Assembly (NCBI GenBank): GCA_964370125.1
Contig: CAYJIB010000003.1
Span: 1,785 to 49,586 of the forward strand
Direction: 5' to 3'
Length of the DNA stretch: 47,802 bases
Source of the DNA: an uncultured Desulfovibrionaceae bacterium
Lineage (GTDB): Bacteria > Desulfobacterota > Desulfovibrionia > Desulfovibrionales > Desulfovibrionaceae
Shown: positions 1,997-37,988 of the stretch, in pieces
How the letters are laid out: each line of letters starts with the position of its first letter
Position numbering within the stretch: position 1 is the stretch's first letter
Translations under genes and position numbers: made by a program
The notes under the pieces: generated by a model
What the model was told of the DNA's origin: nothing
Databases searched by the model: none
The model's input: the letters and a program-made list of their open reading frames with translations, nothing else

Positions 1997-3988
1997 ATGG
2001 CCAATTATTCCATCACAACCCCCATCTACTATGTCAACGCGAACCCGCACTTGGGCCATGCCTATACAACCATCGTTGCCGATTCTCTCACACGCTTTCA
2101 CAAGGCCATTGGCGACAAAAGCCATTTCCTCACAGGGACAGACGAGCACGGCGACAAGATCGCCCAAGCCGCCGAAGCCGCTGGGAAAAGTCCGCAAGAA
2201 TTTGTGAATGAAGTAAGCAGCTTATTTGAAGGACTCTGGCCACAACTTGGCATTCAAAATGACGATTTTATCCGCACAAGCGAAGAGCGACACAAAAAAA
2301 CCGTGCAGGCCTTTTTGCAACATGTCTACGACAAAGGCGACATCTATTTTGGCGAGCATGGCGGCTTTTATTGCACAGGTTGTGAGCGTTTTTACACAGA
2401 AAAAGAGCTTGAAGATGAGCTTTGCCCACAGCACAAGACCAAGCCAGACTTCATTCAAGAAAAGAATTATTTCTTCAAAATGTCCAAATACTTGCCTTGG
2501 CTTGCTGAACATATTCGTGAAAATCCAGACTTCATTCGCCCAGAACGTTACAAGCTTGAAGTGCTTTCTATGATTGAAAGCGGTGCCCTTGAAGATTTGT
2601 GTATTTCTCGTCCAAAATCCCGCCTGACTTGGGGGATTGAACTGCCTTTTGACACAGATTATGTCTGCTATGTGTGGTTTGATGCGCTAATCAATTACAT
2701 CACTTCTCTTGGCTGGGATCCAAACAATCCTGGGGCAAAATACGAGACTTTTTGGCCTGGCGAACACATGATCGCCAAAGACATCTTAAAGCCCCATGCC
2801 GTCTTTTGGCCAACCATGTTAAAATCAGCAGAGCTGCCCATCTATCAGCATTTGAACGTGCACGGCTATTGGCTTATGCGTGATGAAAAAATGTCAAAAT
2901 CCCTTGGCAATGCGATAAGCCCCATAGGCCTTAAAGACCGCTTTGGCCTTGACGCTTTTCGTTATTTCCTCTTGCGTGAAATGAATTTTGGGAGCGATGC
3001 GGCCTTTACCGAACAAGCACTGATCACCCGCATAAATGCCGATTTAGCCAATGATCTTGGCAATTTGTTTAGCCGTGTGCTGACGATGGTTGCTAAGTAT
3101 TTTGATGGAAAAATCCCGCAAGAAGCTGAGCAAACAGAAGACGACAAAGCTATGATGGAGCTTTGCGAAAATTCTATGCGCAACTACATTCAGCTTTTTG
3201 GTGCGATGCGTATGTCTGTGGGCCTTGACGCTCTTTGGGAATATGTTCGTGGCCTCAATAAATATGTCGACAGCCAGGCCCCTTGGACCTTGGCAAAAGA
3301 AGGCAAGACCGAACGCCTTGGCACGGTGCTTCGTCTTATGCTTGAGGGAATGCGCAAGGTCGCTTTGTGTCTTTGGCCTGTTATGCCCGGTGCTTCTGTC
3401 ACCCTTTTGCAACAGCTGGCTGTGCCTGTAAAAGACGGAGAAATCCCGACGACTGCCTTGCAAGATTGTATAGCCGAATGGAATGCCTTGCAAGACGGCG
3501 TTGAGATCGCTAAAAGCTCAAACCTCTTCCCAAGACTCGAAAAACCTACAGAAGAAACAGCTCCAAAGGCGAAAACCACAAAGGAAGAGAAAAAGCAGGC
3601 AAAGAAGAATGAAGACAAAAAAGTCGAGCCTGCAAAAGAAGGCACAAAAGATGATGGCACAGGCTTTATCGATATAACAGAATTTGGCAAGGTCGATATG
3701 CAGGTAGGCACTATACTTTCTGCAATGAAACACCCCAATGCCGACAGTCTCTTGCTCTTTAAAATTGACCTTGGTGAAGCAGAACCACGCCAGATTTTGT
3801 CTGGAATTGCGGCCTTTTACGAGCCAGAAAGCTTGGTGGGCAAACAGGTCTGTGTTGTGGCAAACTTGCCGCCAAGAAAAATGCGTGGAGAAATCTCACA
3901 AGGCATGATCCTTACCGCTGAAAAAGACGGCGTCTTGTCGCTTATCAGCCCTCTTGTGCCAGTTGCCAATGGTGCGCAGATTAAGTAG
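1997..3988 (+). CDS. metG: Methionyl-tRNA synthetase with a C-terminal tRNA-binding (EMAP/Trbp111-like) domain
   Basis: Class I HIGH motif (NPHLGHAY), KMSKS motif, a Cys knuckle (CTGCERF..CPQH), a K/E-rich linker, then the VGTILSAMKHPNADSLL tRNA-binding domain. Confidence 0.95.
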   Translation: MANYSITTPIYYVNANPHLGHAYTTIVADSLTRFHKAIGDKSHFLTGTDEHGDKIAQAAEAAGKSPQEFVNEVSSLFEGLWPQLGIQNDDFIRTSEERHKKTVQAFLQHVYDKGDIYFGEHGGFYCTGCERFYTEKELEDELCPQHKTKPDFIQEKNYFFKMSKYLPWLAEHIRENPDFIRPERYKLEVLSMIESGALEDLCISRPKSRLTWGIELPFDTDYVCYVWFDALINYITSLGWDPNNPGAKYETFWPGEHMIAKDILKPHAVFWPTMLKSAELPIYQHLNVHGYWLMRDEKMSKSLGNAISPIGLKDRFGLDAFRYFLLREMNFGSDAAFTEQALITRINADLANDLGNLFSRVLTMVAKYFDGKIPQEAEQTEDDKAMMELCENSMRNYIQLFGAMRMSVGLDALWEYVRGLNKYVDSQAPWTLAKEGKTERLGTVLRLMLEGMRKVALCLWPVMPGASVTLLQQLAVPVKDGEIPTTALQDCIAEWNALQDGVEIAKSSNLFPRLEKPTEETAPKAKTTKEEKKQAKKNEDKKVEPAKEGTKDDGTGFIDITEFGKVDMQVGTILSAMKHPNADSLLLFKIDLGEAEPRQILSGIAAFYEPESLVGKQVCVVANLPPRKMRGEISQGMILTAEKDGVLSLISPLVPVANGAQIK

Positions 3989-9460: not shown

Positions 9461-9474
9461 GAATTATCCACAAA

Positions 9475-9505
9475 AAAGCCCTTCCGTAAAGAAGGGCTTT
9501 TATTT
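9475..9505 (+). terminator. Rho-independent terminator after the AEC gene
   Basis: Stem aaagcccttc / gaagggcttt followed by tattt. Confidence 0.65.
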
Positions 9506-9544
9506 GCATATTCAACTTTGAGGAATAAATCCTTAATACAGGGT

Positions 9545-9672
9545 CGGCACAAGGCGAATTTTTAGCTTATTTCAATGAAGATGAGCGGGCTTTGAGGAAT
9601 TTATTTAAACATAAATGACCGAAAAAGCCCGCGAAATCTGAAGCAGAAAGAAGCTAAAAATCCGCCTTGTGT
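9545..9672 (+). repeat. Structured element copy A: about 28-bp imperfect outer stem enclosing a conserved core of about 71 nt (candidate ncRNA)
   Basis: Arms 9545-9572 and 9645-9672 pair. The core (9576-9646) is about 90 percent identical to 37813-37883. It contains the inner hairpins GCGGGCTTT..AAAGCCCGC and ATTTAT..ATAAAT. Confidence 0.7.
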
Positions 9673-9675
9673 CAA

Positions 9676-10602
9676 TTAAAAAGCTTTTGTAAAGGTAAAG
9701 GCCGTCAAACTTCCTTGAGCGGCATTTCTGTTGCCAAGCTCAAAGGTCGTACGTAAAGCAAAGGCGGCTTTCCATTCAGGGATTTCAACAGCGATTTCAG
9801 GCCCGATAGCAAAGGCGCGGTAGAGGTTAGTATTGGGTGAATATCTGTCGTTCCCGCCGCTGTCTTCATTGAGCTGCCAAGAACAATAACCGATCACACC
9901 GACGTCAATATTGGCTCTTTTTGTTCTGAATGTCTTACCAAGACCCCATTCAAAGCTAAAGTCTTCACCAGGATTGATGTCTGTTTCTCTTTGCTTCAAG
10001 TTGATTTCATAGCGAGCAAGGGCAGAAAGGTGCCATTCTTTTTCTTCATCAAAATAGATTGTACCACCACCGCTAAGCATAAAGGACCAATAGCCTTTGC
10101 TGAGCTTTGTGGGATTATTTACATCAAAATCGCCCATGGGCAAGAAGACTGTTGCGGCTAAAACGGCGTCAAAGCGGTCTTCATTCCAGGCAATACCGAT
10201 AGGGTCAAAGGGCGCATCACCTATGTCAAAGGTGTGGTCAGTGTAGCTGTTGCCCGGACCGTGGTAGTCGATGTAGGAAAAAGGGAAGATGATATTGCTA
10301 AAAAGGTTTCCGCCGAGGGATTCAATTTCAGAACGATAGGTAAGGCGATGCCCCATAACATTTAAGCTGAGGTCAAAATCTTTGTGGATTTCATGGCCAT
10401 TATTGTCTCTCATCGAAGAAGCGCTGTAATTAACGAGGTAAAAACGATAATACCAGCCTGGATTTGGTGGAAGAGAAGCGACCTTTAAGCCTTCAACACC
10501 GCTAGGGTAATGACCATGAGCGGCAGAAGCCGTATTGGGTGCAACGAAAAAAAGACCGGCAAAGAAAGCAAAGAGCATGGATAGAGCAAATAAACGGCGC
10601 AC
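9676..10602 (-). CDS. Outer-membrane beta-barrel protein (MetA-pathway / 'transporter'-type OMP family-like)
   Basis: Signal peptide ending ASA, alternating beta-strand pattern and an aromatic C-terminus (..FTFTKAF). The family assignment is from memory only. Confidence 0.6.
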   Translation of the reverse strand: MRRLFALSMLFAFFAGLFFVAPNTASAAHGHYPSGVEGLKVASLPPNPGWYYRFYLVNYSASSMRDNNGHEIHKDFDLSLNVMGHRLTYRSEIESLGGNLFSNIIFPFSYIDYHGPGNSYTDHTFDIGDAPFDPIGIAWNEDRFDAVLAATVFLPMGDFDVNNPTKLSKGYWSFMLSGGGTIYFDEEKEWHLSALARYEINLKQRETDINPGEDFSFEWGLGKTFRTKRANIDVGVIGYCSWQLNEDSGGNDRYSPNTNLYRAFAIGPEIAVEIPEWKAAFALRTTFELGNRNAAQGSLTAFTFTKAF

Positions 10603-13999: not shown

Positions 14000-15253
14000 A
14001 TGACAAACAATGCGCCCAGCGAAAAGACAGGCTTCCAAAGCTCAGCCACAGGCTCAACAAGGCTTTGGACGACTGAATTTACTTTGCTTTTTTTACTAGC
14101 GGCCTTTGCCAATGTGTATTTGGCGGTTTTTTACGGTTTTGAACATTGGCTCAGCACTGTAAACATTAGTCCGCAATGGCGTGGTGTCTTGCTTGGCTCT
14201 TTGGGCCTTGGTGTTATGTCGGCTCGCCCCTTTGTGTCTGTTTGGCTTATGCAACACAGGGGCCTTTTGCTTATGGCCTGTGCTCTTTTAACAAACAGTA
14301 TGTTTCTTGTGAGTTATAGCTTTACCGTTTCTCCCTATGCTATTATGTTTATACGCTTTTTTCAGGGAAGCTGCATTGCTGTCATGACCAGCGTTTCGAT
14401 GAGCGTCTTGGTAGAATGTATCCCCAAGGGGCAAAGCACAAAGGCTTTTGCGGCTTTTTCTTTGACCATGGTTTTGCCCTATTCTATTGTGCCTATCGTT
14501 GCCGAGCAGATGTTGCCACACTTAAGCGAGGCCGCTCATCTTTATGCCTATGCCGCCTTGCTTGGTATTCCTTCTTTGCTGGCCATGTATTTGCTTTCTC
14601 GTCGCTTGCCAAAGAGAGAGCAAAAAAGCGGCGGATCTGGTAAGGGTTCTGGCGGCGGCTCGTTCTCTTTAAAGCATATATGGAATGCTATCTTTCATTC
14701 TGGCCTCTTTCTCGCCTTTCTTTCAGTCTTTTTCTTGGCCTGCGCTTATTTTACGGTTTTTTATTTTATGAAGAGCCTTTGCGCTTCAAATGGCGTAGAT
14801 GCGGGGCTTTTCTTTACGACCTATACGGCCTTTGTCATTATCATTCGCTTCTTTGCTGGTGGCAAGATGGACAAAATCCCTCGCATTCCTGGGATTTTGC
14901 TCTGTGCGGCCGCTTCTGGTGTGGCCTTTATGGGCTTTGCTTTTGGGCCGACTTGGCTCTTTATGCCCTTTGCAGCCCTTCACGGCCTGGGTTCTGGTAT
15001 TTTGTATCCCATGCTTGCGGCCACGGTCTATGATATGTCGACACCAGAGACACGTTCAATCAATTCAAATACTTTGCTACTCTTTTTTGATGCGGCGGTT
15101 ATCGGTTCGTCGCTCATTGGCGGCATTATCCTTGACATGGGCTTTAGCTATGAAGATGTCTTCTTTAATGGCAGCTTCTACCTTGTGATCATTATAGCTT
15201 GCATGACTTTCTTTGCGCCAAGGTGGAAAAGAAGGCATGAGCTTGTAGACTAA
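14000..15253 (+). CDS. MFS transporter, tandem paralog 1
   Basis: About 12 TM helices. It shares the conserved block W..EFT..FL.A.FAN.Y.A.FY.FE.WL...I.PQWRG with the next two genes. Confidence 0.85.
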   Translation: MTNNAPSEKTGFQSSATGSTRLWTTEFTLLFLLAAFANVYLAVFYGFEHWLSTVNISPQWRGVLLGSLGLGVMSARPFVSVWLMQHRGLLLMACALLTNSMFLVSYSFTVSPYAIMFIRFFQGSCIAVMTSVSMSVLVECIPKGQSTKAFAAFSLTMVLPYSIVPIVAEQMLPHLSEAAHLYAYAALLGIPSLLAMYLLSRRLPKREQKSGGSGKGSGGGSFSLKHIWNAIFHSGLFLAFLSVFFLACAYFTVFYFMKSLCASNGVDAGLFFTTYTAFVIIIRFFAGGKMDKIPRIPGILLCAAASGVAFMGFAFGPTWLFMPFAALHGLGSGILYPMLAATVYDMSTPETRSINSNTLLLFFDAAVIGSSLIGGIILDMGFSYEDVFFNGSFYLVIIIACMTFFAPRWKRRHELVD

Positions 15254-15317
15254 GCGTAAATTATTTACTTGTAAAATGGCTCTTTTTTTGCGATAAGGCT
15301 TATAAAAGGATGGGGAT

Positions 15318-16562
15318 ATGTCAGAAAACAAAAGTACCGATACTGTGACCAAGGAAGAAAGCCCTTCGCTAGAGCTTGCGCCAAAGCCGACAAGTCTTTG
15401 GAATTTTGAATTTACGCTTATCTTTTTGATTGCCATGTTCTCCAATGTCTTCATTGCCATTTTTTATGGCTTTGATTATTGGATGGAAAACAGGGGGATT
15501 GGCCCGCAATGGCGAGGCATTTTGCTTGGTGTTTTGGGTCTTGCCGTACTTTGTACACGGCTCTACATGACGGCTTGGCTTTTGCGGCACAGAGGTCTTT
15601 GGCTTATGACCTTGGCTCTTGTAGTGTCTGCAGGCGTTATGATGTCCTATGATTTTGCGAGCACCCCTGCCTCTATTTTTGCCCTACGTTTTTTACAGGG
15701 CATGTGCTTTGCCATTGTGAATTCTATCAATGTCAGCATCTTGGTTGATTGTATCCCCGAAGGACAAAGCACCCGTGCCTTTGCTATGTTTTCTTTAACG
15801 TACATCTTGCCCTATTCGGCTGTGCCACTGATCGGTGAATATATTTTGACTTTTTTAGCAAATCCAAGTCATCTTTATACTGTCACGTCTGTGCTTGCCC
15901 TGCCTGCTCTTTTTTCCTTATTTTTATTAGTACGCCGCCTGCCAAAGAAAGAATTTGATCCAAATGCCAAAGCTCTTTCTTTGCTTCATGTATGGAAAAA
16001 TTTACGTTCTTCTGGCCTGATCTTGATTTTCTTGTCGGTGCTTTTCTTTGCCTGTGCGCATTTCACCTTTATGTTCTTTTTGAAGGGCCTTAGTATCCGT
16101 ATGGGAGTTAATGCTGGACATGTCTTTGGCGTGTATACGGTCTTTGTTATTCTTGTTCGTTTTGTGGGCAACAATCTCTTGGCAAAAATCCCTCGCATGA
16201 CCAGCATTATCACTTGTGCGGCCCTACTCGTTGCTATTTTCCTTGGTTTTGCTTTTGGGCCTTCTTGGATGCTTATTCCTCTAGCTGTGCCTTATGGCAT
16301 AGGCATGGGCATTGCCTATCCCATGCTTATGGCTACAAACTACGATATGTCGCCGCCAGAAAATCGTTCGCTCAATTCAAACACCATGCTTTTATTTTTT
16401 GATGCAGCGACGATGGTGTGTTCGCTTGCTGGTGGCGCTGTTCTTGACCTTACTGATTCGTATGGTGCTGTGCTTGCCAATGGGGCTGTCTATATGGCTC
16501 TTATTGTTGTATGTATGACGCTCTTTATTCCAAGATGGAAGCAAAGACAAAAGGCCGCATAG
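15318..16562 (+). CDS. MFS transporter, tandem paralog 2
   Basis: Same architecture and conserved blocks (ECIP.GQST.AFA.FSL, SINSNT.LLFFDAA). Confidence 0.85.
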   Translation: MSENKSTDTVTKEESPSLELAPKPTSLWNFEFTLIFLIAMFSNVFIAIFYGFDYWMENRGIGPQWRGILLGVLGLAVLCTRLYMTAWLLRHRGLWLMTLALVVSAGVMMSYDFASTPASIFALRFLQGMCFAIVNSINVSILVDCIPEGQSTRAFAMFSLTYILPYSAVPLIGEYILTFLANPSHLYTVTSVLALPALFSLFLLVRRLPKKEFDPNAKALSLLHVWKNLRSSGLILIFLSVLFFACAHFTFMFFLKGLSIRMGVNAGHVFGVYTVFVILVRFVGNNLLAKIPRMTSIITCAALLVAIFLGFAFGPSWMLIPLAVPYGIGMGIAYPMLMATNYDMSPPENRSLNSNTMLLFFDAATMVCSLAGGAVLDLTDSYGAVLANGAVYMALIVVCMTLFIPRWKQRQKAA

Positions 16563-16597
16563 TACATTTTTGTTAAAACTGCAAATGGAGGTTTTTC

Positions 16598-17863
16598 ATG
16601 TCTACGGATATGGCAAATAATGATGTCCCTCAAGCTGAGCAAGAGGCGCAAGCACAACAAGAAGCTTCCCCGCCTGCGCCGCCAAAGCCGCAAAGCGTTT
16701 GGACACTTGAATTTACCACCCTTATGCTGCTTGCTATCTTTGCCAATTTGTATGTGGCTGTCTTTTATAGCTTTGAGCAGTGGCTTGTCTTAAAGAGCAT
16801 TGGCCCGCAATGGCGTGGACTTATTCTTGGTTCTATGGGCCTTGCTGTTTTATCTACACGCTCCTTTGTCTCTGTGTGGCTTATGCGGCACAGAGGCTTT
16901 GTCCTTATGGCGATGGCTCTTTTAGTCAATAGCCTTATCCTTGTGGCCTATACCTTTGTTGATACGCCAGAGCCCATTATGGGCTTGCGTATCTTGCACG
17001 GTGTTTGCTTTGCGGTTATCAATTCTGTGGCGATGAGCGCCTTGGTGGAATGTATTCCTGATGGGCAAAGCACGAGGGCTTTTGCGCTTTTTTCTTTAAC
17101 CCGCATCTTGCCTTATTCCATTGCGCCGGCGGTTTCAGAATTTGTCTTGCCAAGCCTAAGCGACCCAAGTCATCTCTATGCCTATACGGCCTTGCTTGGC
17201 CTGCCTTCTCTTATAGGCATGTATATTATGGCTAAAAGGCTTCCGAAAAAGCCCCCGAGCAGTGACGGAAAAGAGCCTTATTCTTTGTGGCAGGTTATCA
17301 GCAATATGAATAAGTCCGGTCTTTTCCTCGTCTTTGCTTCTGTTGGTTTTGTGGCTTGTGCTTATTTTACGACCATTTTCTATATGAAGGGCCTCTGCCT
17401 TGACAATGGCACCAATCCTGCTGTTTTCTTTGGATTTTATACTGGTTGTATTATTCTTACTCGTTTCTTGGGCGCAAAGGTTGATCAGATCCCTCGCATC
17501 CCTGGCATTATGATTTGTGTGGCTTTGTCGGCTCTTGCTTTTGTTGGTTTTGCTTATGGCCCAGGCTGGATGCTTATTCCTCTTGCTATTGTTTATGGTA
17601 CCTCAATGGGGATCGGTTATCCTATGATTTCTGCGACTGTATACGATATGTCGAGCAAGGAGACTCGTTCGATCAATGCCAATACGATGATGCTTTTCTT
17701 TGATGCGGCCAATGTTGTTGGCTCTATTATTGGCGGCAATATCTTGGATTTTGGCGGCGATTATCACGATGTTTTCTTTAGCGGTTTTGTGTATATGGTG
17801 CTTATTTTGATCTGTATGGTTTTCTTTGCGCCTAAATGGCGACGTCGCCACGAATTTATATAA
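16598..17863 (+). CDS. MFS transporter, tandem paralog 3
   Basis: Same architecture, with RBS ggagg 6 nt upstream. Confidence 0.85.
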   Translation: MSTDMANNDVPQAEQEAQAQQEASPPAPPKPQSVWTLEFTTLMLLAIFANLYVAVFYSFEQWLVLKSIGPQWRGLILGSMGLAVLSTRSFVSVWLMRHRGFVLMAMALLVNSLILVAYTFVDTPEPIMGLRILHGVCFAVINSVAMSALVECIPDGQSTRAFALFSLTRILPYSIAPAVSEFVLPSLSDPSHLYAYTALLGLPSLIGMYIMAKRLPKKPPSSDGKEPYSLWQVISNMNKSGLFLVFASVGFVACAYFTTIFYMKGLCLDNGTNPAVFFGFYTGCIILTRFLGAKVDQIPRIPGIMICVALSALAFVGFAYGPGWMLIPLAIVYGTSMGIGYPMISATVYDMSSKETRSINANTMMLFFDAANVVGSIIGGNILDFGGDYHDVFFSGFVYMVLILICMVFFAPKWRRRHEFI

Positions 17864-17988
17864 GGGCGTTGAAAAGGGTCAATCTGCGGCGTTAAATTCT
17901 TTTTTTGCTCCATGTCGAATACCAATTCGTATACTCATTCCGCAAAAAAAGAATTTGCCTTGCATCTTGACCCTTTTGAACGCCCTTT
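17864..17988. repeat. Long imperfect palindrome (about 125 nt) immediately after the MFS stop codon
   Basis: agggcgttgaaaagggtcaa pairs with ttgacccttttgaacgccct. Inner arm aattctttttttgc pairs with gcaaaaaaagaatt. Confidence 0.75.
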
Positions 17989-18067
17989 GGTTTTTGCTGG
18001 CACCTAAGGTTTTTTTTGAGCTTTTACCCTCTGGTGTTTTTGAGCTGCCCTTTGGTTTTTGCTGGCA
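17982..18067. repeat. Two perfect 21-nt direct repeats (gccctttggtttttgctggca) 65 nt apart, interleaved with repeated tttttgagct
   Basis: Exact copies at 17982-18002 and 18047-18067. Confidence 0.8.
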
Positions 18068-18735
18068 TAGAAAATTTTTTAGCTTATAATACTTTCCAGA
18101 GCTTGCTTCTGGCGTCCCCTAAGGGGTATTTGGAGTGGGCGTGTCTTTCTGAAGAAGGCATGAAAAAGCCCCCTCCCCGAGGGAGGCTTAATTGATGCTT
18201 CGCACATTAAAGATGTTTAATTTCACTGAAATTGCAAGAAACAAAGACATTGAAGCGAGTTTTCTGGCAATTTTGTTAGCGTATTTTGAACTGAAAAGTT
18301 TCAATATCAAATGCTTAGTCTGTTTTTCAGCTTCGACTAAATAATGCTTGCCTTTTTTTTAATTTTTTTTTATTGTAACAAAGTATCAAATCTATATATT
18401 TAGTAATAGCTTCTATTACTATTAAATAAAATTTCACTTTTGTTAAAAAAAATCATTATAAAAGTCTTTTTTTTCTTAAAAATGAAAGTCCAAATGACAA
18501 AAAGTGCCTTTATCTCTTTTAAGTATTTCTTTTTCTTAAGTTTAATTCTTAAATAAGTCTGTGTCTTGCTTAAATTTTTTACTTTAAAGTAAAAAATTTC
18601 TCTATGTTTTTTTTCATAAAAAGTAAAAAAATAAAAATAGGTAAAATTTTTTAAAAAAAACTTTGAAGATAATAGTTCACAAAATCAGCTTATTATAAAA
18701 TTTTATAAAAAAAATTTAAAAAGAGAAGCAGTTTT

Positions 18736-18777
18736 TTCATAAAAGTGAAAGACCAACACAGTTTTAATATGTATAAT
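18736..18777 (+). promoter_or_regulatory. Candidate activator-dependent promoter of the GRE gene
   Basis: TATAAT at 18772-18777 has no good -35. TTCAT-N4-GTGAA (18736-18749) would be centred near -41.5 of the inferred start. Confidence 0.3.
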
Positions 18778-18821
18778 AGAGTCAAAATTAAACGGAGATA
18801 CAATCTCAGGAGGTTTTGAAT

Positions 18822-21461
18822 ATGTCTAATCAAGTTATCAAATCTCAAGTGTTGTCAATGTTAGAGACAGGTAAAACGGTTACTTGGCCTGCTAACATCG
18901 TAAAGCCAGAAACAGGCTTTACCCCAAAAGAAGTTAAAGGCAATCCATCTACAGAGCGTACCAAAAGAATGCAAAAGCGTTTCTTTGAAGGCAAGTGTCG
19001 CTTTGATACAGAAATGCCTCTTCTCTATACAGAAGGTTGGAAAGCCGCTGCTGGTCAGCCAATGTACATCCGCAGAGGTATGGCTTATAAGCACATGCTT
19101 TCAAACATGACTCCGCTGATCAAAGAAGACGAAGTTATCGTAATGTCAAAGCACCGCTACACACGCGGCGCCACCATGTATCCACAAGTTTCTACAAAGT
19201 TTATGATCGACTTCCTCAACATGGCTGTTGATGAAGAAGCAAAGCTCTTTAGCGTAAAAGGTACAGCCGCTGCTCACAATATCGATGAAGAAGGCTGGAC
19301 AAAGCTCGGTCAATTCTACGGTATCCCAACTGCTGAAGTTGAGCCAATGAAAGAGTGTTTGGAATACTGGAAGACACGTTCTATTGAAGACGTAGCCGAA
19401 AGCGTAATGGCTGACCTCTTCCCAGAGTACGAAGACTTGCTTCGTGGTACAAAGATCGGTATGTGGCCTGGTTCTGGTGTTGCCTCTGGTTGTGACGGCC
19501 GCTTTAGCCCAGCTTATGACATCGTAATCTACCGTGGTCTTGAAGACGTTATCAGAGAATGTAAAGAAAAAATCGCCAATGCCCAAGCTATTAAGCAAGA
19601 AGGCTCTGAGCAGATCTTCTTCTGGAGAGGCTGTATTCTCGCTTGTGAAGGTATGATTCAGTGGGCGAAAAATTATGCCGCTTCCGCTCGAGAAGCAGCA
19701 AAAACAGCCACCGGCGCACGCAAAGACGAACTCTTGCAAATGGCTGACACTCTTGAGTGGGTACCTGCAAAGCCTGCCCGTACGTACCGTGAAGGTATGC
19801 AAGCCGCTTGGGCCGGTCACATGATGGTGTGGAATGACTCTATGTTCCTTGGCCTTTCTCCAGGCCGTTGGGGTCAAATGCTTTATCCTCTTTATAAAGC
19901 CGACATCGAAGCTGGCCGCATCACTGACGAAGAAGTCTTGGAATTGTGGGAAATCATGCGTATTAAGTTTAGCTCTGAAGAGTTCATTACTCCTTCAGGC
20001 TGGGCAGCAACCGCTTCTGCAAACTCCTTCCAGCACATGGTAGCTGTTGGTGTTGACGATAAAGGCAGACCTCTTGAAAACCCAGTTGAACTTGCTATGC
20101 TTCAAGCTGGTATCAATATGCCTACTCCACAGCCAACACTTGGTGTATTCGTAGATGGCAAAACCCCAAGAAAACTCTTGCTCAAAGCCGCTGAATGTAC
20201 AAAAGCCGGTAACGGTTATCCCGCATGGTTTAACTATGACATGATGGTAAAGCATCTTCTTTGGTCACATGCAGAAGAAGGTATCACCATGGAAGACGCC
20301 AAAAACGTCGCTATCTCTGGTTGCGTAGAAATCGGCGCACAAGGCACAACTCACCCGATCTCTCACCCAGCATTCTACAATCAAGCCAAAACTCTTGAGC
20401 TTGCTCTTAATGACGGTGTTGACCCAAGAACTGGCGAAGTGTGCTACAAAGGCCTTAAAGCTATCAATAGCTATCAAGACGTTTGGGACAACTTTGTTGC
20501 CATTCGTGAACACTACATGAAAGTCTACATGCGTTATTGGAACTATGTAATGGCTATCTTCCGTGAAAACCATCCAAAAATCGCTTCTTCCGTACTTATG
20601 CATGACTGCGTAAAAGTGGGACGTCCGATTTGCTGTAACGGTATCCGCTACAATAAGTCCGTAACCTTGCTTGAGTCTGGTACTGTAAACGTATGTAACA
20701 GCTTGGCCGCTCTTAAAAAGCTCGTATGGGAAGACAAAAAATACACCTACGCTGACTTTAAAGACGCTATGGACAACAACTTCGGTTATATGCTTGGCGC
20801 AGAGAACAACAACTTCTCTATGCTCAACCAAGAAATCGATCCTGCAAAACACGAAAAGTATGTACAAATCCACAGAGACGTACTCGAAGCGCCTAAGTTT
20901 GGTAACGACGATGACTTCGTTGACGACATCTTTGTTGACTTGTGGCAAGATTATGACCGTGTATGTGCCTCTGAAACAACCTATCTTGGCTACCGCTGGT
21001 TGACAGCTGCCTTGTCAATCTCTGCTCACGGCCCACACGGACGTGTAACAGGCGCAGGCCCAGACGGACGTCTTGCTGGCGTAACACTTTGTGACGGTAT
21101 CCTTTCTGCCGCACCAGGAACAGACGTAAACGGCGCTCTCGCTCTTATGCGCTCTGGTGTAAAGCTTGATCCAACTGAATACCGCAGTGTACAACTCAAC
21201 ATGAAGTTCCACCCTTCAGCCGTAGAAGGCGAAGAAGGCAGCAACAACTTTGTTGACTTCATCAAATCCTACTTTGACATGGGCGGCTTCCACGTACAGT
21301 TCAACGTAGTTGACTCCAACATGTTGCGTGACGCACAAGCAAAGCCTGAAGAATACCGTGACCTTATGGTACGTGTAGCTGGCTTTAGCTCATACTGGGG
21401 CGAGCTTGGCAAACCTATACAAGACGAAGTTATCGCACGTACAGAATACAACGCGATGTAA
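18822..21461 (+). CDS. Glycyl radical enzyme (PFL-like superfamily, GCVE Cys-loop eliminase/decarboxylase type), substrate unknown
   Basis: Glycyl radical motif MVRVAGFSSYW near the C-terminus. Thiyl loop ISGCVEIGAQG. GRE blocks APKFGNDDDFVD and GAGPDGRLAG. AGGAGG RBS precedes the ATG at 18822. Confidence 0.95.
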   Translation: MSNQVIKSQVLSMLETGKTVTWPANIVKPETGFTPKEVKGNPSTERTKRMQKRFFEGKCRFDTEMPLLYTEGWKAAAGQPMYIRRGMAYKHMLSNMTPLIKEDEVIVMSKHRYTRGATMYPQVSTKFMIDFLNMAVDEEAKLFSVKGTAAAHNIDEEGWTKLGQFYGIPTAEVEPMKECLEYWKTRSIEDVAESVMADLFPEYEDLLRGTKIGMWPGSGVASGCDGRFSPAYDIVIYRGLEDVIRECKEKIANAQAIKQEGSEQIFFWRGCILACEGMIQWAKNYAASAREAAKTATGARKDELLQMADTLEWVPAKPARTYREGMQAAWAGHMMVWNDSMFLGLSPGRWGQMLYPLYKADIEAGRITDEEVLELWEIMRIKFSSEEFITPSGWAATASANSFQHMVAVGVDDKGRPLENPVELAMLQAGINMPTPQPTLGVFVDGKTPRKLLLKAAECTKAGNGYPAWFNYDMMVKHLLWSHAEEGITMEDAKNVAISGCVEIGAQGTTHPISHPAFYNQAKTLELALNDGVDPRTGEVCYKGLKAINSYQDVWDNFVAIREHYMKVYMRYWNYVMAIFRENHPKIASSVLMHDCVKVGRPICCNGIRYNKSVTLLESGTVNVCNSLAALKKLVWEDKKYTYADFKDAMDNNFGYMLGAENNNFSMLNQEIDPAKHEKYVQIHRDVLEAPKFGNDDDFVDDIFVDLWQDYDRVCASETTYLGYRWLTAALSISAHGPHGRVTGAGPDGRLAGVTLCDGILSAAPGTDVNGALALMRSGVKLDPTEYRSVQLNMKFHPSAVEGEEGSNNFVDFIKSYFDMGGFHVQFNVVDSNMLRDAQAKPEEYRDLMVRVAGFSSYWGELGKPIQDEVIARTEYNAM

Positions 21462-21473
21462 TCTATAAACCTT

Positions 21474-21505
21474 AGCAAATAGGGGACTTAGCTCCCCTAT
21501 TTGCT
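21474..21505 (+). terminator. 13-bp-stem hairpin after the GRE gene (no T-run; partial terminator or mRNA stabiliser)
   Basis: agcaaatagggga / tcccctatttgct with a 6-nt loop. Confidence 0.45.
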
Positions 21506-21640
21506 GAACAAGGCCTTATCAATAAAAGACATTGCACAATTGTTTTTAACAAAAGATTGAATATAATCGTGCAAGAAACTACAAAAACAACAATAAGGCC
21601 AAGAAGACAATTATGGTGCAGTTTTCAATCTGTAATACAT

Positions 21641-21680
21641 AGGGGAAAGTTGCCATTTTCTTTCCCCTTTAATCTCTTTT
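21641..21680 (+). terminator. Terminator-like hairpin in the leader of the first locus MFS gene (candidate attenuator)
   Basis: aggggaaag / ctttcccct followed by ttaatctctttt, ending about 22 nt before the start codon. Confidence 0.35.
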
Positions 21681-21702
21681 AATGAGACGGGAGAGAATTG
21701 GT

Positions 21703-23043
21703 ATGAGTAGTAATAATGCAAGTCCGGTGGCAAAATTCTCAGGCTGGACAGTCGTAACCGGCGCCTTCTTTTTGATTTTCTTTCACATGATTGTTCGTGG
21801 CTCTTTTGCTACCTTGATTCCTGCAATGGTAGCCGATACGGGCTGGTCTACAGGCACAGTGTCTGCTGGTAGTTCCTTTTTCTTATTGTTCTACGGTCTT
21901 TTCGCCTTCTTAACAGGCACCTATATCGGCAAACTCGGTTGTCGCTTAACCTACACTATCCACGCCCTTCTTTTGGGTGGTGGACTTTTCTTGTGCAGCT
22001 ATGCCACACAGCCCTGGCAGTATTGGGTCTTTTATGGCGTAATGGGCGGTGCTGGTGCTGGTGCTTTTTGGGCCCCTGTAACCGCAATGGTGCGCCAATG
22101 GTTTATTGAAAAGCTCGGTCTTGCGATGGGTCTTGCTATTGCGGCTGCTGGTCTTTCGATGGGTCTTGCGCCTATCATTTCAATGTATCTTATTGCGGGT
22201 CAATCTTGGCAAATGATGATGCGTATTCTTGGTGTTGTTCTTATTGTGGGCATTGCAGTTGCTGCACAATTTACAACAATGAAGCCAGAAGACGCAGGCC
22301 AAAAGCCTTTGGGCTTTGAAGCCTTTATGGCAAGGATGGCGGCTTCTGCGGGTACTGCTCCAAAGCAAGAATTTTATGTTCCCTTTGCTTGGGCCGTAAA
22401 AAATAAAGTCTTTTGGATTTTTGCTTTTGCTTGGTTTTTCTCTAACTTTGCAGAATTCATCGTCTTTGCTCACGCTATCAACTATGTAACCCTTGACCTT
22501 GGCTTTAGCAAAATTGACGCTACTTATGCCTATTGTCTTATCGGCTTTGTCTTTATCTTCTCTGCTATTTATGCAGGTAATATTGCTGACAGCCTTACCA
22601 AAAAATTGGGCGATCCGATTAAAGCACGCAAAAGAATTTTGACCTTTGCGTATCTTGGTGCAGCTTGTTCATGTATCTGGCTCAACTATGTTGTTCGCGG
22701 TTATAGTGATGGCGGAGCTTTTGTTGTGCCTTTTGCTGTCTATACCGCCTTCTTTGGTTTTGTGTTCGGAACGTACATTACGACATTTGCCGGTTTGGTG
22801 GGTGTTATCATGGGACGTAAAGAAATGGCACCTGCATGGGGCTTTATCACAGTAGTTGGTATGGGCGGCGGTGCTGGTCTTGGTCCTTATGTTGCTGGCG
22901 CTTTGCGTGACTCAACTGGCAGCTATTTCCCAGCTATTTGGTTGTCAACTGTATGTTATGTTGTCGCTGTTATTCTTGTAAATATTCAAAGGCAGCCGAC
23001 AAATGAAGAGATCTGGGGTCCTGCTGGTCCTCCACAAGCCTAA
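21703..23043 (+). CDS. MFS transporter (oxalate/formate antiporter-like, organic-anion type)
   Basis: 12 TM profile. ATG at 21703 has gggagag 8 nt upstream. Confidence 0.8.
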   Translation: MSSNNASPVAKFSGWTVVTGAFFLIFFHMIVRGSFATLIPAMVADTGWSTGTVSAGSSFFLLFYGLFAFLTGTYIGKLGCRLTYTIHALLLGGGLFLCSYATQPWQYWVFYGVMGGAGAGAFWAPVTAMVRQWFIEKLGLAMGLAIAAAGLSMGLAPIISMYLIAGQSWQMMMRILGVVLIVGIAVAAQFTTMKPEDAGQKPLGFEAFMARMAASAGTAPKQEFYVPFAWAVKNKVFWIFAFAWFFSNFAEFIVFAHAINYVTLDLGFSKIDATYAYCLIGFVFIFSAIYAGNIADSLTKKLGDPIKARKRILTFAYLGAACSCIWLNYVVRGYSDGGAFVVPFAVYTAFFGFVFGTYITTFAGLVGVIMGRKEMAPAWGFITVVGMGGGAGLGPYVAGALRDSTGSYFPAIWLSTVCYVVAVILVNIQRQPTNEEIWGPAGPPQA

Positions 23044-23174
23044 AAAGCTATAGACAAAGTTCTTTGTATGATTATTTACATTTGACAGCATTTCATTTAG
23101 TTTCCTTATGAAACAAGCCCGCTCAGTGATTTTGGGCGGGCTTACTCGGCACAACTGGAGGGAGGTTTGTCGCC

Positions 23175-24119
23175 ATGGAAAACAGCCAAGAACTGCAAGC
23201 ATTGATATTTAATATTCAGCCCTATTCATCACATGATGGCCCGGGCCTTCGGACAACAGTTTTCTTTAAGGGTTGTGCTCTTAAATGTCTGTGGTGCGCA
23301 AATCCCGAAAGCCAGAAGATGATTCCCGAACTTCTTTATCACAAGCAAAAGTGTTGCGCCTGTTTTCGTTGCAAGCAGTTTTGCCCGCATGACGCAATAA
23401 GCGCCTATGAGAGCGAAGAAGATCTTGAAAACTTTGGTTTTGTTCGCTTTGATAGAAAGAAATGCGACAAGTGCGAAAATCACGAATGTGTACGGGCTTG
23501 CGTGCAATCTGCTTTAACGGTTAGCGGAAAATACATGACGATTGATGAAATTTATGAAAAAGTCAGTCGAGATGTAAAAATGTACAGTAAAGAAGGCGGC
23601 GTTACCCTTTCTGGTGGTGACCCTTTGATGCAGCCTGTCTTTGTTGCCGCACTCTTAAAGAAATTTCAAGAGAACGGTATCAATACAGCCTTAGAGTCCG
23701 ACCTTTTGGTTCCACAAAAAAGCTTAGAGATGGTCATGCCCTATGTAGATCATTTTTTGACAGACATGAAGCTTTATGACGAGCAAAGGCATATTGAGGC
23801 AACGGGAAAGAGCAATAAAATCATTTTAGAGAATTTGCGTCTTTTAGGGAAGACATATCCTGAAAAAGTGCTTCTTCGTGTGCCTATTATTCCAACTTTT
23901 ACTGATAGCGAAGAAAATATCCGCAATATTATAGCTTTTTGCCTTGAAAACAATTTGCCAAGAATCAATATTCTGCCCTATCACAAATTGGGCTCTGGGA
24001 AGTTTTCGCAAGTTGGGAAGATTTATGAGATGCCCGACCTTCCCATTCCAGCCAAAGAGTTTATGCAAGGCATAGCGGCTTATATTGAAGCCTACGGCAT
24101 AAAGTGTAAGGTAAATTAA
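23175..24119 (+). CDS. Glycyl-radical enzyme activating enzyme (radical SAM) with an auxiliary ferredoxin-like di-cluster insert
   Basis: CxxxCxxC (GCALKCLWC), followed by CCACFRCKQFCP and CDKCENHECVRAC cluster motifs and the GGVTLSGGDP SAM motif. Confidence 0.95.
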   Translation: MENSQELQALIFNIQPYSSHDGPGLRTTVFFKGCALKCLWCANPESQKMIPELLYHKQKCCACFRCKQFCPHDAISAYESEEDLENFGFVRFDRKKCDKCENHECVRACVQSALTVSGKYMTIDEIYEKVSRDVKMYSKEGGVTLSGGDPLMQPVFVAALLKKFQENGINTALESDLLVPQKSLEMVMPYVDHFLTDMKLYDEQRHIEATGKSNKIILENLRLLGKTYPEKVLLRVPIIPTFTDSEENIRNIIAFCLENNLPRINILPYHKLGSGKFSQVGKIYEMPDLPIPAKEFMQGIAAYIEAYGIKCKVN

Positions 24120-24143
24120 GTTTTTTATGACGATGTAGAGCCT

Positions 24144-24175
24144 AAAGCCTATCCTGTGCAGGATAGGCTTTTTTA
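24144..24175 (+). terminator. Strong rho-independent terminator after the activase
   Basis: aaagcctatcct / aggataggcttt followed by a T-run. Confidence 0.8.
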
Positions 24176-24337
24176 TGATTTCCAAAAAAAGAAATGACAA
24201 AAGTGAAGAAAATTTTCTTTTTTTTGAAAAGCTCTTAGCCTATTTTTTCTTTATCTTACGAGCTTTTTGCAAGCCTTTATCTATGAAAAGGCGAGTAAAA
24301 AGAAGGTGTAAGCCATTCAAAAAACGGTAAAAAACAC

Positions 24338-24366
24338 TTGACAAAACAAATTGCCTTGTATACGTT
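24338..24366 (+). promoter_or_regulatory. Sigma70-type promoter about 470 nt upstream of the second locus MFS gene
   Basis: TTGACA-N17-TACGTT (alternatively N15-TATACG). Confidence 0.4.
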
Positions 24367-24817
24367 CGAAAGAAGGCAGATTCTTTGTGACAGGAGGTGA
24401 GAGGAATCTTTGTTTTATGTGTTTTTGGCTAGATGAAATTTTTGGTTTTTATTTTTTAGTAAAAGCCGCCTCGCCTTGTTCAGCTATTGTTTCTAACTTT
24501 AGCCTGAATAAAGCACAAGGCAAGCCACAAGAAGCCTGTATCTTTGGTGAACGTGCTTGCATTTGCCCATGCTTTGGGTGAAATTGTTTTGTTTTGTACA
24601 TTGCCAGTTATTGCTTACAATTTTTTAGAGAATATTGTTTGCGGGCTGCTTGTACCTTGGTTTATGTCTGGCGATGAAAATAGTACACAGTTTGCACTAG
24701 AAAGTGACAGAAAAAAATGGCGCTGGTGCAGGCAAAAAAAGCATTCTTTGCTTTTTTGTATTAAAATTCATACGCACTATTTTTGAATCATTCTCATTTT
24801 AACTAAGGAGACTCAAA

Positions 24818-26116
24818 ATGGATGATGCTGCACGTTCACAACGGTTAGGTAAGATTACTACCTTTTCCTGCTGGCTAGCTCTTTTTGGTTTGTTCGGTTT
24901 CCGTACAACCTTTGCTGTTCTTAAAAACCCTATGGCCGCTGACCTTGCTTGGTCTGGTGCTGACGTATCATTGGGATATTCTATCCTTATGCTCGTTTAT
25001 GCTATCACAGCATTTTTCTCTGGCCCAATGATTGACAAATGGGGCACACGCCCAACATTCGCCATTGCGGCCGTTTTCGGCTTCTTGGGCTTCTTCCTTA
25101 CCGCAAAAATCGACACCGTACTTGCTTACTACTTCACCTTTGGTGTAATCGGTGGTGTATCTAACGGTATGTGTTGGGTATCTTCAACTGTATCTATCCG
25201 TAAATGGTACGTTGGTGCCGGATACGGTAAGATGTTTGGTTGGGCCTTCATGGGTGCACCTGTTGCACAAATCATCATGTCCACAATGGTAAAAAGCCAG
25301 CTCGCTGGTGGTGACCCAACCGCTTGGCGTGGTGCTATGCACTCTCTTAGCTTCCTTACCCTTGCTGTACTCGCCCTTGCTGCTATCGTAGCCAGAAAAA
25401 CACCTGAGCAATACGGTCTTAAGCCAAACGGCTTGCCACCAGCCCCAGCTCCAGGTGCCCCAGCTGCTGCTGCACCTCCAGCAGAATACCGCTGGACACG
25501 TGGCGAAGCTTTCAGAACCTACCCAGTATGGGCCGCTATCCTCGTCTTCTTGACCGCGATGATCGGCGAATTCCTTATCTGGAGCCAAATCGTATCTTAC
25601 TGGGTACTTGACCTTAAAATGCCTCTTGCTGACGCTACTGACATGTATATCCTTATTGGTATCTTCGGTATCTTCACCATGGTACTTGTTGGTATGGGTA
25701 CTGACGCAATCGTAAGAAAAGTCGGACACGAGCCAACCGGTCGTCGTCTCGTACTTATCATCGGACCACTAATCGGCTTCATCGCTTGTGTGCTTCTCCT
25801 TATGCAGCCACAAAACGTTATGTTCGGTTATGCTTCTACAGTTATCTTTGCAATCTACTGGGCGATCGTGCCTGGTGGTGTTGTGGGTTACGCCGGTTCT
25901 ATCTACGGTCGTCTTACACTCGGAACAATCTGGGGCCTCGCTACCCTTATCATCATGGGTATCGGACCGTTCACAGGTTCTTTCGTAGGTGCTACTTTGG
26001 CTGACCATTTCGGTAGCTATCGTTATTCCATCATGTTCGCAGCTGGTGCCTTCGTTGTTGCATCTATCTTTGCGTTCACCATGCCTACAAGCATTAAAAC
26101 ACCTGATCAAAAATAA
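24818..26116 (+). CDS. MFS transporter (OFA-like) with a Pro/Ala-rich central loop
   Basis: 12 TM profile, RBS aaggaga, and central loop GLPPAPAPGAPAAAAPPAEY. Confidence 0.85.
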   Translation: MDDAARSQRLGKITTFSCWLALFGLFGFRTTFAVLKNPMAADLAWSGADVSLGYSILMLVYAITAFFSGPMIDKWGTRPTFAIAAVFGFLGFFLTAKIDTVLAYYFTFGVIGGVSNGMCWVSSTVSIRKWYVGAGYGKMFGWAFMGAPVAQIIMSTMVKSQLAGGDPTAWRGAMHSLSFLTLAVLALAAIVARKTPEQYGLKPNGLPPAPAPGAPAAAAPPAEYRWTRGEAFRTYPVWAAILVFLTAMIGEFLIWSQIVSYWVLDLKMPLADATDMYILIGIFGIFTMVLVGMGTDAIVRKVGHEPTGRRLVLIIGPLIGFIACVLLLMQPQNVMFGYASTVIFAIYWAIVPGGVVGYAGSIYGRLTLGTIWGLATLIIMGIGPFTGSFVGATLADHFGSYRYSIMFAAGAFVVASIFAFTMPTSIKTPDQK

Positions 26117-35922: not shown

Positions 35923-36605
35923 GATGTCCACCTGTTCCTGTAATCGTCAGCTGAGACAGGGATAGAATAAAGCATAAAGGGCAAGAGGACAATATAGGCC
36001 CAAATAATATTGACATAAAAGCCCGCACCTTTATAGAGAAGAAGCTCAACACACAGGCAAAAAGTAATAAAAAGCCCTAAGATTTTGCGCTTTATTTGCG
36101 GTTCAAGCAAGACAAAGGCTCCGCCAAGATAGACAAAGAAGCCGGCAATAAACCAAGGTAGGGTATTGACAAAGGCTGAAAAAACTATTTCAAAAGGGAA
36201 ATAATAGCTCATCATAGCCAGTAAGACAGTCATATCGATGGCAAAAACACAAAAAAGAAAGAGCAAGCCAAAAAGAGCGTGAAAAAGCACCATGGTCGAA
36301 GAATCACAAGGGGCGTGAAGGGCAATGCGAATACGAGCGTCACGCATTTCTTGCAAAAACTGAAAAGTGCAAAAGAGCAGGGCCGTAATGATGGGAATAA
36401 AGGTTAACTCTTGATAAGGAAGTTGGCCAAGTTCAACAAGCCTGTGCCAAACGACCTCTGAATGGTCCAGAGTGAAAAGTCTGCGAATAGAGATAAAATT
36501 CCAGGCCATATAGGCAAGGTTAAAGGCCAAGAGCGCAAGCATAACCAGTCGAGTTTTAACAATTTCTTTGTAAAAAACTGAAGCGAGCATCGCGAAGGCA
36601 TTCAT
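35919..36605 (-). CDS. Polytopic membrane protein (putative permease partner of the ABC ATPase)
   Basis: About 6 TM helices. Its start at 36605 is directly after the ABC stop codon. Confidence 0.65.
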   Translation of the reverse strand: MNAFAMLASVFYKEIVKTRLVMLALLAFNLAYMAWNFISIRRLFTLDHSEVVWHRLVELGQLPYQELTFIPIITALLFCTFQFLQEMRDARIRIALHAPCDSSTMVLFHALFGLLFLFCVFAIDMTVLLAMMSYYFPFEIVFSAFVNTLPWFIAGFFVYLGGAFVLLEPQIKRKILGLFITFCLCVELLLYKGAGFYVNIIWAYIVLLPFMLYSIPVSADDYRNRWTS

Positions 36606-36606
36606 A

Positions 36607-37515
36607 CTAATACCTTCCCGTATAGCCAATAAAGGCGTCTTCAATGTCCATAGCTGTCTTGTTAATGCCAAGAGTATTTAGGCCTGTTTTTTGGAAATCC
36701 TGCAAAATAGCGTCTTCATCGGCGTACATAAAGACTTGAGCAAAGTCTTTGTGCCATTCTGCATTGACAAAAAGACTTGGGTCAAGGGCGTCAATCATTT
36801 TCTTGACGCTTTCTTTGTTGCTTGTTGTCGGTACGGTATAGCAGCTGAATTCGCTCATAAAAGCGTTCAAAGAGGTGGCGAGGGCGGGCTTGTTGCGACG
36901 CATAAAGACCACTTCGTCAACAAAGTTTTGTAGGTCTTGAATGACGTGTGAGGTGATGATGATGGTGTGTTTGCCGTCTCGCAGGTGTTCACACAAATAG
37001 TCAATAAAAAGACGACGATAGCCAGCATCAAGACCCATGGAATAATCGTCAAGGATAAGCAGTTCTGGGTCTTGAGCAAGGATAAGACCAAGCACAATTT
37101 GTGAGCGTTGCCCTTCGCTCATGTGACCTATGCGATGCGAATAAGGCAGGCCAAGTCTGTCGACAAGGTCATAATAGACATCGGGCTTCCACTTTTTATA
37201 AAATCTGCGGGTAAATTTTTCGGCTTGTTCAATCGAAAAGAAATCATAGGCAAGATGACGCTCAAAGAGCAGGCCGACTCTTTCGCGAGTTTCTGGACGA
37301 ATGGCATAGGCAGGATCGCCAAAAATTTTGCAAATCCCACCAGTTGGGCGCATGAAGCCCATAAGTATTTGGATAAGTGTTGTTTTTCCCACACCGTTTT
37401 TACCAAGCAAGGCATAGACTTTTCCCTTGGGTATGGTCAAAGAAAGAGAGTTGTACAGCTCTCTTTGCCCATAATTATGAGAAAGGTTTTCAATTACAAT
37501 GGGGTGGTGTTCCAC
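36607..37515 (-). CDS. ABC transporter ATP-binding protein (ABC-2 type)
   Basis: Walker A GKNGVGKTT, signature MSEGQRSQ and Walker B LLILDD. The GTG start at 37515 with aagga upstream is inferred, so the true start is uncertain (the ORF extends to 37578). Confidence 0.8.
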   Translation of the reverse strand: MEHHPIVIENLSHNYGQRELYNSLSLTIPKGKVYALLGKNGVGKTTLIQILMGFMRPTGGICKIFGDPAYAIRPETRERVGLLFERHLAYDFFSIEQAEKFTRRFYKKWKPDVYYDLVDRLGLPYSHRIGHMSEGQRSQIVLGLILAQDPELLILDDYSMGLDAGYRRLFIDYLCEHLRDGKHTIIITSHVIQDLQNFVDEVVFMRRNKPALATSLNAFMSEFSCYTVPTTSNKESVKKMIDALDPSLFVNAEWHKDFAQVFMYADEDAILQDFQKTGLNTLGINKTAMDIEDAFIGYTGRY

Positions 37516-37772: not shown

Positions 37773-37916
37773 GAGTGCGTTAACATAAAATGATTTTTCG
37801 AATTATATCTAGGAAGATGAGTGGGCTTTGAGGAGTTTATAAAAACATAAATGACCGAAAAAGCCCATGAAATCTGACGCAGAGATAATCGAAAAGGCGT
37901 TTATGTTAACACGCTC
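37773..37916 (+). repeat. Structured element copy B: long imperfect outer stem enclosing the same conserved core as 9545-9672
   Basis: The core (37813-37883) is about 90 percent identical to copy A. The arms (gcgttaacataaa.. / ..tttatgttaacacgc) are unrelated in sequence to the copy A arms but are again self-complementary. Confidence 0.7.
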
Positions 37917-37930
37917 CAGAAAAAAGACGC

Positions 37931-37988
37931 AAAAAAACACTCATACACCTTTATGCATGGGAAAGCGTAAGGTGATATGAGTGTTTTT
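37931..37988 (-). terminator. Rho-independent terminator of the flagellin gene
   Basis: Long hairpin aaaacactcata..cacctt / aaggtg..tatgagtgtttt followed by a U-run on the minus strand. Confidence 0.7.

Follow-up and report, generated by a model that had tools for sequence, protein, structure and literature searches.

The conserved 71-base stretches that occur twice in a 47,802-nucleotide piece of bacterial DNA (the window) are the tips of two hairpins of 130–145 bases, which belong to a previously undescribed superfamily of dispersed, strand-specific repeats in anaerobic and termite-gut bacteria. Selection keeps the pairing along the entire rod and the purine internal loops of one strand. 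The repeat is dispersed, high-copy, polymorphic and independent of its neighbouring genes, and we read it, with a probability of roughly 45%, as a non-autonomous selfish interspersed element that would be copied by way of a folded single strand recognised by a protein encoded elsewhere.

Two hairpins in the window share a conserved core

An earlier note on the window had reported a duplicated core with a compensatory base-pair change. The duplication is real and far beyond chance: a 24-mer from the core is found exactly twice in the window, where none is expected (100 shuffles). The reported identity of about 90% over 71 nt, with 7 differences, needs a small correction, as the 7 differences fall in 70 nt (9577-9646 and 37813-37882) but there are 8 in 71 once 9576/37812 is included. 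The coordinates given for copy B were off by one, the correct register pairing 9577 with 37813. The surroundings had been called unrelated, and the flank sequences do differ between the copies, but these flanks are the arms of a basal helix that pairs in both, 9546-9573 with 9646-9673 in copy A and 37773-37806 with 37885-37916 in copy B. The span originally delimited, 9545-9672, coincides with the full copy A hairpin (Table 1).

Both copies are on the + strand and intergenic, as had been stated, and both the 9-bp helix GCGGGCUUU/AAAGCCCGC and the inner AUUUAU/AUAAAU hairpin are recovered by inverted-repeat search and by folding. The C-G to U-A double substitution between the copies is present, as is the adjacent change of a G-C pair to a G-U wobble: the 9-bp helix of copy B opens with G-U and U-A, not G-C and C-G. 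Copy B also has a G-C closing pair, not U-A. In copy A, 9548-9573 forms an inverted repeat with 9646-9671 (26 nt, 92% complementary), and the 3′ arm ends 3 nt from the stop codon of a convergent outer-membrane protein gene (9676-10602, −). The inverted repeats of copy B are 37770-37789/37900-37919 and 37788-37801/37889-37902, and its base is of the GTTAAC type found also in termite-gut copies.

Table 1. Hairpins, their modules and further copies (positions without a contig prefix are those of the window)
Feature	Position	Strand	Evidence and remarks
Copy A, full rod hairpin, 128 nt, main family F1	9546-9673	+	RNAfold −61.2 kcal/mol, z = −9.6; model R1 118 bits
Copy A basal helix, 5′ arm	9546-9575	+	sequence unlike copy B, pairing kept; fold
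Copy A conserved core	9576-9642	+	sequence, fold, family covariation
Copy A closing pair	U9576-A9642		
Copy A GA/GA loop	9577-78 / 9640-41		
Copy A 4-bp helix AGAU/AUCU	9579-82 / 9636-39		
Copy A lower GA/GAA loop	9583-84 / 9633-35		
Copy A 9-bp helix	9585-93 / 9624-32		
Copy A second GA/GAA loop	9594-95 / 9621-23		
Copy A GG/CC helix	9596-97 / 9619-20		
Copy A apical hairpin	9599-9616		
Copy A basal helix, 3′ arm	9643-9673	+	inverted repeat, fold
Copy B, full rod hairpin, 144 nt, main family F1	37773-37916	+	RNAfold −56.8 kcal/mol, z = −9.9; R1 113.5 bits
Copy B conserved core	37812-37878	+	modules as in copy A
Third, diverged superfamily member (L014-type family F3)	17862-17987	−	R1, filters off, 28.5 bits, E = 1e-4
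Further full copy	L003:4224-4368		R1
Sister-family copy	L003:667-814	−	R1
Half copy	L005:1262-1400		R1
Distant relative	L014:11373-11510		R1 44 bits, E = 3e-8; cut by contig end
Distant relative	L023:11629-11753		R1
Distant relative	L017:7145-7250		R1

A third superfamily member, absent from the earlier note, reads GCAAGG...UCUUUUUUUGC-GGAAUGAGUAUAC...GUAUUCGACAUGGA-GCAAAAAAAGA...AACGCCGCA and resembles the L014 and L017 copies. It folds at −73 kcal/mol (−67 for the opposite strand), and its end shares 17862-17863, the final two bases of the stop codon, with an MFS transporter gene, 16598-17863. Close to it, the 21-nt direct repeat TGCCAGCAAAAACCAAAGGGC occurs on the − strand at 18067-18047 and 18002-17982, 65 nt apart. 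The second of these overlaps the 5′ foot of the third hairpin; the repeat may be left over from the end of another copy or reflect a partial duplication.

Copies A and B adjoin ordinary terminators and do not replace them. A bidirectional hairpin-plus-T-run terminator lies beside copy A at 9465-9510, and the flagellin gene terminator, also a hairpin plus T-run, lies beside copy B at 37933-37988. Elsewhere in the window, positions 14000-26116 hold a cluster in which a glycyl-radical enzyme (18816-21461) and its radical-SAM activase (23175-24119) are surrounded by five MFS transporter genes, and two open reading frames, of 1017 aa (40882-43935, −) and 250 aa (35919-36671, −), have no Pfam match.

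Anatomy of the rod

Each copy is a rod hairpin of 125-150 nt. From base to tip, the main family has a variable basal helix, shared within subfamilies (e.g. AGAAGUUAUUUCAUAAAUAG... or ...GUUAACAC...); helix P1 of 14 bp, in which tandem U·G is frequent; a small AA/GCN loop; a closing G-C pair, U-A in copy A; a GA/GA loop; the 4-bp helix AGAU/AUCU; a GA/GAA loop; a 9-bp helix; a second GA/GAA loop; the helix GG/CC; a loop that is GA/GA in the termite-gut copies and A/GA in the window copies; and a variable apical hairpin as the tip. The local motif U-GA-G/C-GAA-A is present twice. Both the GA/GA and the GA/GAA loops are conserved, which bears out the earlier proposal of tandem G·A pairs next to the helix.

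In the sister families the lower junction (AAG-GA-A ... U-GA-CGC) persists, and so, in most cases, does the apical GG-GA-GUG...CAC-GA-CC, while the connector between these two modules is built from different helices of similar total length. Subfamilies share the whole hairpin, base included. Termini are common only within subfamilies (AGAAGTTATTTC..., GTTAACAC...) and differ among copy A, copy B and the other families; information content is 0.7-0.8 bit per column at the ends versus 1.7 at the lower junction.

The fold is under strand-specific selection

Covariation was assessed on a MAFFT alignment that had not been fitted to structure. Standard pairs are formed by 95% of the cells, against 40-52% in controls in which partners were slid by 1-3 columns. 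Double-sided changes occur at 19 of 34 pairs, compared with 6.6±1.7 in shuffles (0 of 500 reach 19) and 4-7 in the slid controls. The covariation score is 0.337 versus 0.13 in shuffles, and RNAalifold finds compensatory changes at 23 of 39 pairs. The 4-bp helix AGAU/AUCU, invariant within the main family, covaries in sister families, where it becomes AGGC/GCCU (L003:667-814) or AGC/GCU (L023); its invariance and that of some loop positions is partly ascertainment, since the scan pattern required them. The purine-loop strand is the more stable one in 14 of 15 copies, by a mean margin of ~15 kcal/mol, and the opposite strand is also able to form a long hairpin.

That a folded single strand is under selection, in a strand-specific manner, is established, and this strand could be RNA or ssDNA alike. 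The description as a novel structured RNA holds for a conserved secondary structure with genuine covariation, but status as an RNA gene is not established, as the element behaves as a dispersed repeat. A reading as the gene for a small peptide was rejected in view of the many stop codons and of stems that covary without keeping codons.

Where copies occur

A single run of a metagenome scan, its pattern anchored on the purine loops with the helices left free, returned 12 copies from three termite-gut samples, all with the same rod fold. The termite-gut contigs are 54-63% GC, and the window is 43.9% GC. A covariance model, R1, was used to find the further copies in Table 1. The main family occurs in termite-gut contigs, and the distant sister families in other anaerobe metagenome-assembled genome (MAG) contigs. 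The relatives in L014, L023 and L017 came from contigs fetched for an unrelated reason; L014 and L023 are NCBI MAG contigs (GCA_031550225.1 and GCA_031548195.1), in which each relative lies at the end of its contig, where it would be expected if assemblies break at the repeat. The 48-kb window and the 5.2-kb contig L003 hold three superfamily copies each, and the relevant sequence covered amounts to ~190 kb. Two other approaches were set aside: a regex scan for the hallmark was noisy, with coding-region matches, up to 8 matches in shuffles and copy A missed, and a second-family model built from three sequences aligned poorly.

The sister family at L003:667-814 has AA/GCG loops in place of GA/GAA and is itself multicopy in termite-gut DNA (depth ~123 versus ~8). 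The half copy at L005:1262-1400 is the 5′ half of the element, with the same basal sequence and CAAGGAAUAUGGGC followed by unrelated sequence; it abuts the full L005 copy in inverted orientation, an arrangement that suggests decay or nested rearrangement. Contig L003 also carries, at ~2960-3300, an unrelated and hugely abundant repeat, whose depth reaches up to ~4700 where single-copy sequence has ~8. It consists of REP-like palindromes that are short and rich in GC, CCAAAGGGC...GCCCTTTGG then GGAATCCCAT, present twice.

The earlier note could match the element to no known RNA family, and Rfam concurs. At the gathering score, Rfam 15 gives no match in the window or in L002-L013 and only tRNA in L014-L023; at E ≤ 10 it gives only terminator look-alikes and generic miRNA hairpins. 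No known mobile element matches the core, which the earlier note had allowed might prove to be the end of one. The loop-anchored pattern, run against 185k species genomes, found one chance match in a coding region and no real copy, and no copies came from two scans of viral contigs or from blastn against plasmids and phages. Listings of sequencing runs contain none for the window and none in RNA for the element alone, and literature searches found no described repeat of this kind and nothing relevant on GCA_031550225.1 or GCA_031548195.1. The window organism is isolated, the nearest homologue of the flanking outer-membrane protein being 49% identical; look-ups of window genes by exact protein gave no match. 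Gene content suggests that the hosts are flagellated, diderm anaerobes, several contigs being typical of anaerobic aromatic-compound degraders.

Copy A and the relatives in L014 and L017 are each found downstream of a Phenol_MetA_deg outer-membrane protein gene; the three genes are homologous, and the shared position may be fortuitous. Contigs with distant relatives (L017) carry glycyl-radical/activase pairs similar to the one in the window.

Genomic behaviour

Read depth over the element is 10-30x that of its flanks in five termite-gut DNA runs (X1-X5), and the copy number is dozens or more per genome-equivalent. No gene family recurs among the neighbours, which are unrelated housekeeping genes without a functional theme: a transporter and an outer-membrane protein for copy A, flagellin and an ABC ATPase for copy B, and, in the termite-gut contigs, clpP/clpX (L011), hisG/glnA (L007), ruvX/mltG (L010), rimM-trmD and dehydrogenase/rnhB (L003), pyrG/purQ-like (L005), asd (L004), flgI (L012) and cobU (L006). 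The intergenic spacers that hold the copies are short, and a stop codon is often just a few nucleotides away (3 nt in copy A, 6 nt in L010, overlapping in L003c, L007 and L009), and those at clpP|clpX and ruvX|mltG are operon-internal. Relative to neighbouring genes, the purine-loop strand is sense in six cases, antisense in six and mixed in two. Orientation does not track GC skew (10/15, p = 0.30), and within one skew domain of the window two copies are on the + strand and one on the − strand.

Related strains carry alleles without the element in the clpP-clpX spacer and at the L003 locus. These show presence/absence and not an insertion event, because the strains have diverged and the filler is unrelated; no clean empty site was found among these diverged alleles, and none at L010. 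TTAA flanks several GTTAAC-type copies at both ends and is missing in copy A and subfamily 2, and it is ambiguous as a target-site duplication because it is self-complementary and extends the stem; no target-site duplication was demonstrated. No transposase, HUH nuclease, recombinase or reverse transcriptase is encoded in the window or adjoining any copy. Sequence conservation stops at the limits of the hairpin, and the window copies have promoter and terminator matches no more often than chance would give. Metatranscriptome contigs hold copies with foreign flanks, in which the element is not enriched over those flanks; these contigs are without strand information and may include DNA carry-over.

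Discussion

The element behaves as an interspersed repeat and not as a gene or cis-regulator, which favours a selfish element. Its mobility, a single-stranded intermediate and a protein partner are what we infer. The element would be copied to new intergenic sites through an intermediate of RNA or of ssDNA, the latter by analogy with REP/REPIN-RAYT, IS200/IS605 or integron attC. In such an intermediate the purine-loop strand would fold, and its G·A loops would be read by a protein that acts in trans from another place in the genome. The purine loops kept by selection are, at the lower junction, a tandem GA/GA loop and, beyond a 3-4-bp helix, a second GA/GA(A) loop; most families have a similar module near the tip.

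Against the selfish reading, RNA is the classic setting of tandem sheared G·A loops and of tandem U·G pairs. Moreover, a conservation peak at the centre is the inverse of what end-recognising transposases leave in MITEs and REPINs and is usual for functional RNAs, so an RNA explanation is a serious rival. The element might then be a multicopy trans-acting structured ncRNA, for example a protein-binding scaffold or sponge, with the G·A loops as sites of protein or tertiary contact and a basal helix free to drift where pairing alone is needed. RNA genes typically combine a conserved centre with helices that covary freely, the U-GA-G/C-GAA-A loops are the same as the stem-II-proximal core of the hammerhead, and G·U pairs, tandem U·G included, lie on the one strand that is strongly favoured; conservation spans hosts of 44-63% GC, and the copies with foreign flanks in metatranscriptome contigs would also fit. 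However, an RNA gene accords poorly with the lack of conservation outside the hairpin and promoter and terminator matches at chance, with random orientation that includes antisense copies inside operons, with a copy number of dozens or more per genome-equivalent and polymorphism in presence/absence, with half and decayed copies, and with no enrichment over flanks in RNA despite 10-30x in DNA. We consider this ncRNA possible but, on balance, unlikely. 

A cis-acting element in local mRNA or DNA, co-opted by the host as proposed for REP, ERIC and Correia, seems to us improbable. It could protect mRNA 3′ ends, direct RNase III processing, uncouple genes or bind a nucleoid or topology protein, and the position of copies in short intergenic spacers near stop codons matches the distribution reported for REPs (PMC3733652), with a long hairpin still possible on either strand. 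But a function in the transcript should impose orientation, and the strand asymmetry of the fold together with the 6:6 split makes such a role less likely. A generic stabilising hairpin needs no conserved purine loops, the neighbours have no functional theme, and orthologous spacers of related strains lack the element with no sign of a replacement. We give hardly any credence to a hammerhead-related self-cleaving ribozyme, which GAUGAG-[helix]-CGAAA followed by CUGA would suggest. GAUGAG...CGAAA does correspond to hammerhead positions 5-10.1 and 11.1-15.1, but C3 and U4 are replaced by A-A, so that the core reads AAGAUGA, there is no three-way junction, as the flanking strands pair (AGAU/AUCU) in a helix that covaries in sister families, and a U16.1-H17 cleavage site is missing. 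Neither the hammerhead nor any other ribozyme family matches at E ≤ 10 or at gathering thresholds.

Interspersed palindromic repeats are common in bacteria, and what recognises them and why they persist is mostly unresolved. The present family is unusual in that it conserves the sequence of internal purine loops and lets every helix covary, in hosts from 44% to 63% GC. Conserved loops on covarying helices point to a specific, conserved reader of the folded single strand, and identifying this reader could bring to light a transposition system or an RNA-protein system that is new. As a clean natural alignment, the family is also suited to the study of the tandem G·A module. In practice, assemblies break at the repeat (copies lie at contig ends), and a genome scan can take it for an ncRNA gene.

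Comparison with known systems

The hammerhead consensus is CUGANGA...GAAA, with a core of U7-G8-A9-G10.1 / C11.1-G12-A13-A14. The U-GA-G / C-GAA-A motif of the element is identical to the stem-II-proximal part of this core (domain 2), a resemblance of structural modules only. The junction can also be drawn as a box C/D k-turn, with GAAGAUGA...CUGA as C-box and D-box, a GAA bulge and G·A, A·G and U·U pairs. We rejected this drawing, as the canonical bulge-side helix (C-helix) would have only 1 bp, and A2b·G2n is lost in L003:667-814 and L023, where double changes keep a Watson-Crick helix; these changes, to AGGC/GCCU and AGC/GCU, rule out a k-turn of GAAGAUGA/CUGA.

Integron attC sites, which are recognised as folded single strands, resemble the element in size range, in strand specificity and in that structure and not helix sequence is conserved. 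They have features of their own, namely R″/R′ core sites (RYYYAAC...GTTRRRY), extrahelical bases, a variable tip and same-orientation arrays beside intI. In contrast, the tip of the element is conserved and its copies are solitary and scattered among housekeeping genes. The pair of R″ (RYYYAAC) and R′ (GTTRRRY) is found in 0 of 15 copies on either strand, and identity with attC was rejected.

ERIC/IRU, Correia/NEMIS and the Rickettsia RPE are bacterial MITEs that fold as long RNA hairpins. The element shares with them the form of an imperfect palindrome of ~100-170 bp, an intergenic or operon-internal position in either orientation and polymorphism among strains. The definition of a MITE rests on terminal inverted repeats that are conserved and on duplication of the target (e.g. 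TA), whereas the termini of the element vary between families, no duplication has been demonstrated, and conservation lies in internal loops with stems that covary across hosts of very different GC. No parent IS sharing its termini was seen.

REP units are 20-40 bp long, have an unpaired GTAG or CGTC tag at one end and often lie within ~20 bp or a few nucleotides of the 3′ ends of open reading frames (PMC3733652). In REPINs, two highly conserved inverted ends surround a less conserved spacer (PMC3116915), and REPs and REPINs are mobilised by RAYT transposases (PMC3116915, PMC3733652). The cognate RAYT is a Y1 HUH transposase whose gene, in the same genome, usually has the repeats on its flanks. 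The element resembles them in being high-copy, intergenic, close to 3′ ends of open reading frames and devoid of an encoded protein, in forming a long ssDNA or mRNA hairpin with compensatory changes, and in that several families can coexist in one genome. The conservation is arranged differently, however, with the ends of the element least conserved and the centre with its purine internal loops most. A terminal GTAG, CTAC or CGTC tag is present in none of the 15 copies, the sole recurrent GACG being the internal junction CUGACGC, and no RAYT is encoded in the window or beside any copy (the sequence covered being short metagenome contigs and ~48 kb of source genome). Identity with REP/REPIN was rejected on the lack of a tag and on ends that are not the conserved part. 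It is conceivable, if doubtful, that these hairpins are an element class of their own, whose spread or function would depend on a rod-shaped single strand with tandem G·A loops at regular spacing as the sites that are read. It could be a new kind of mobile element, copied via ssDNA or RNA and recognised by some enzyme at its centre and not at its ends, or a multicopy RNA of a bacterial ribonucleoprotein without counterpart in Rfam.
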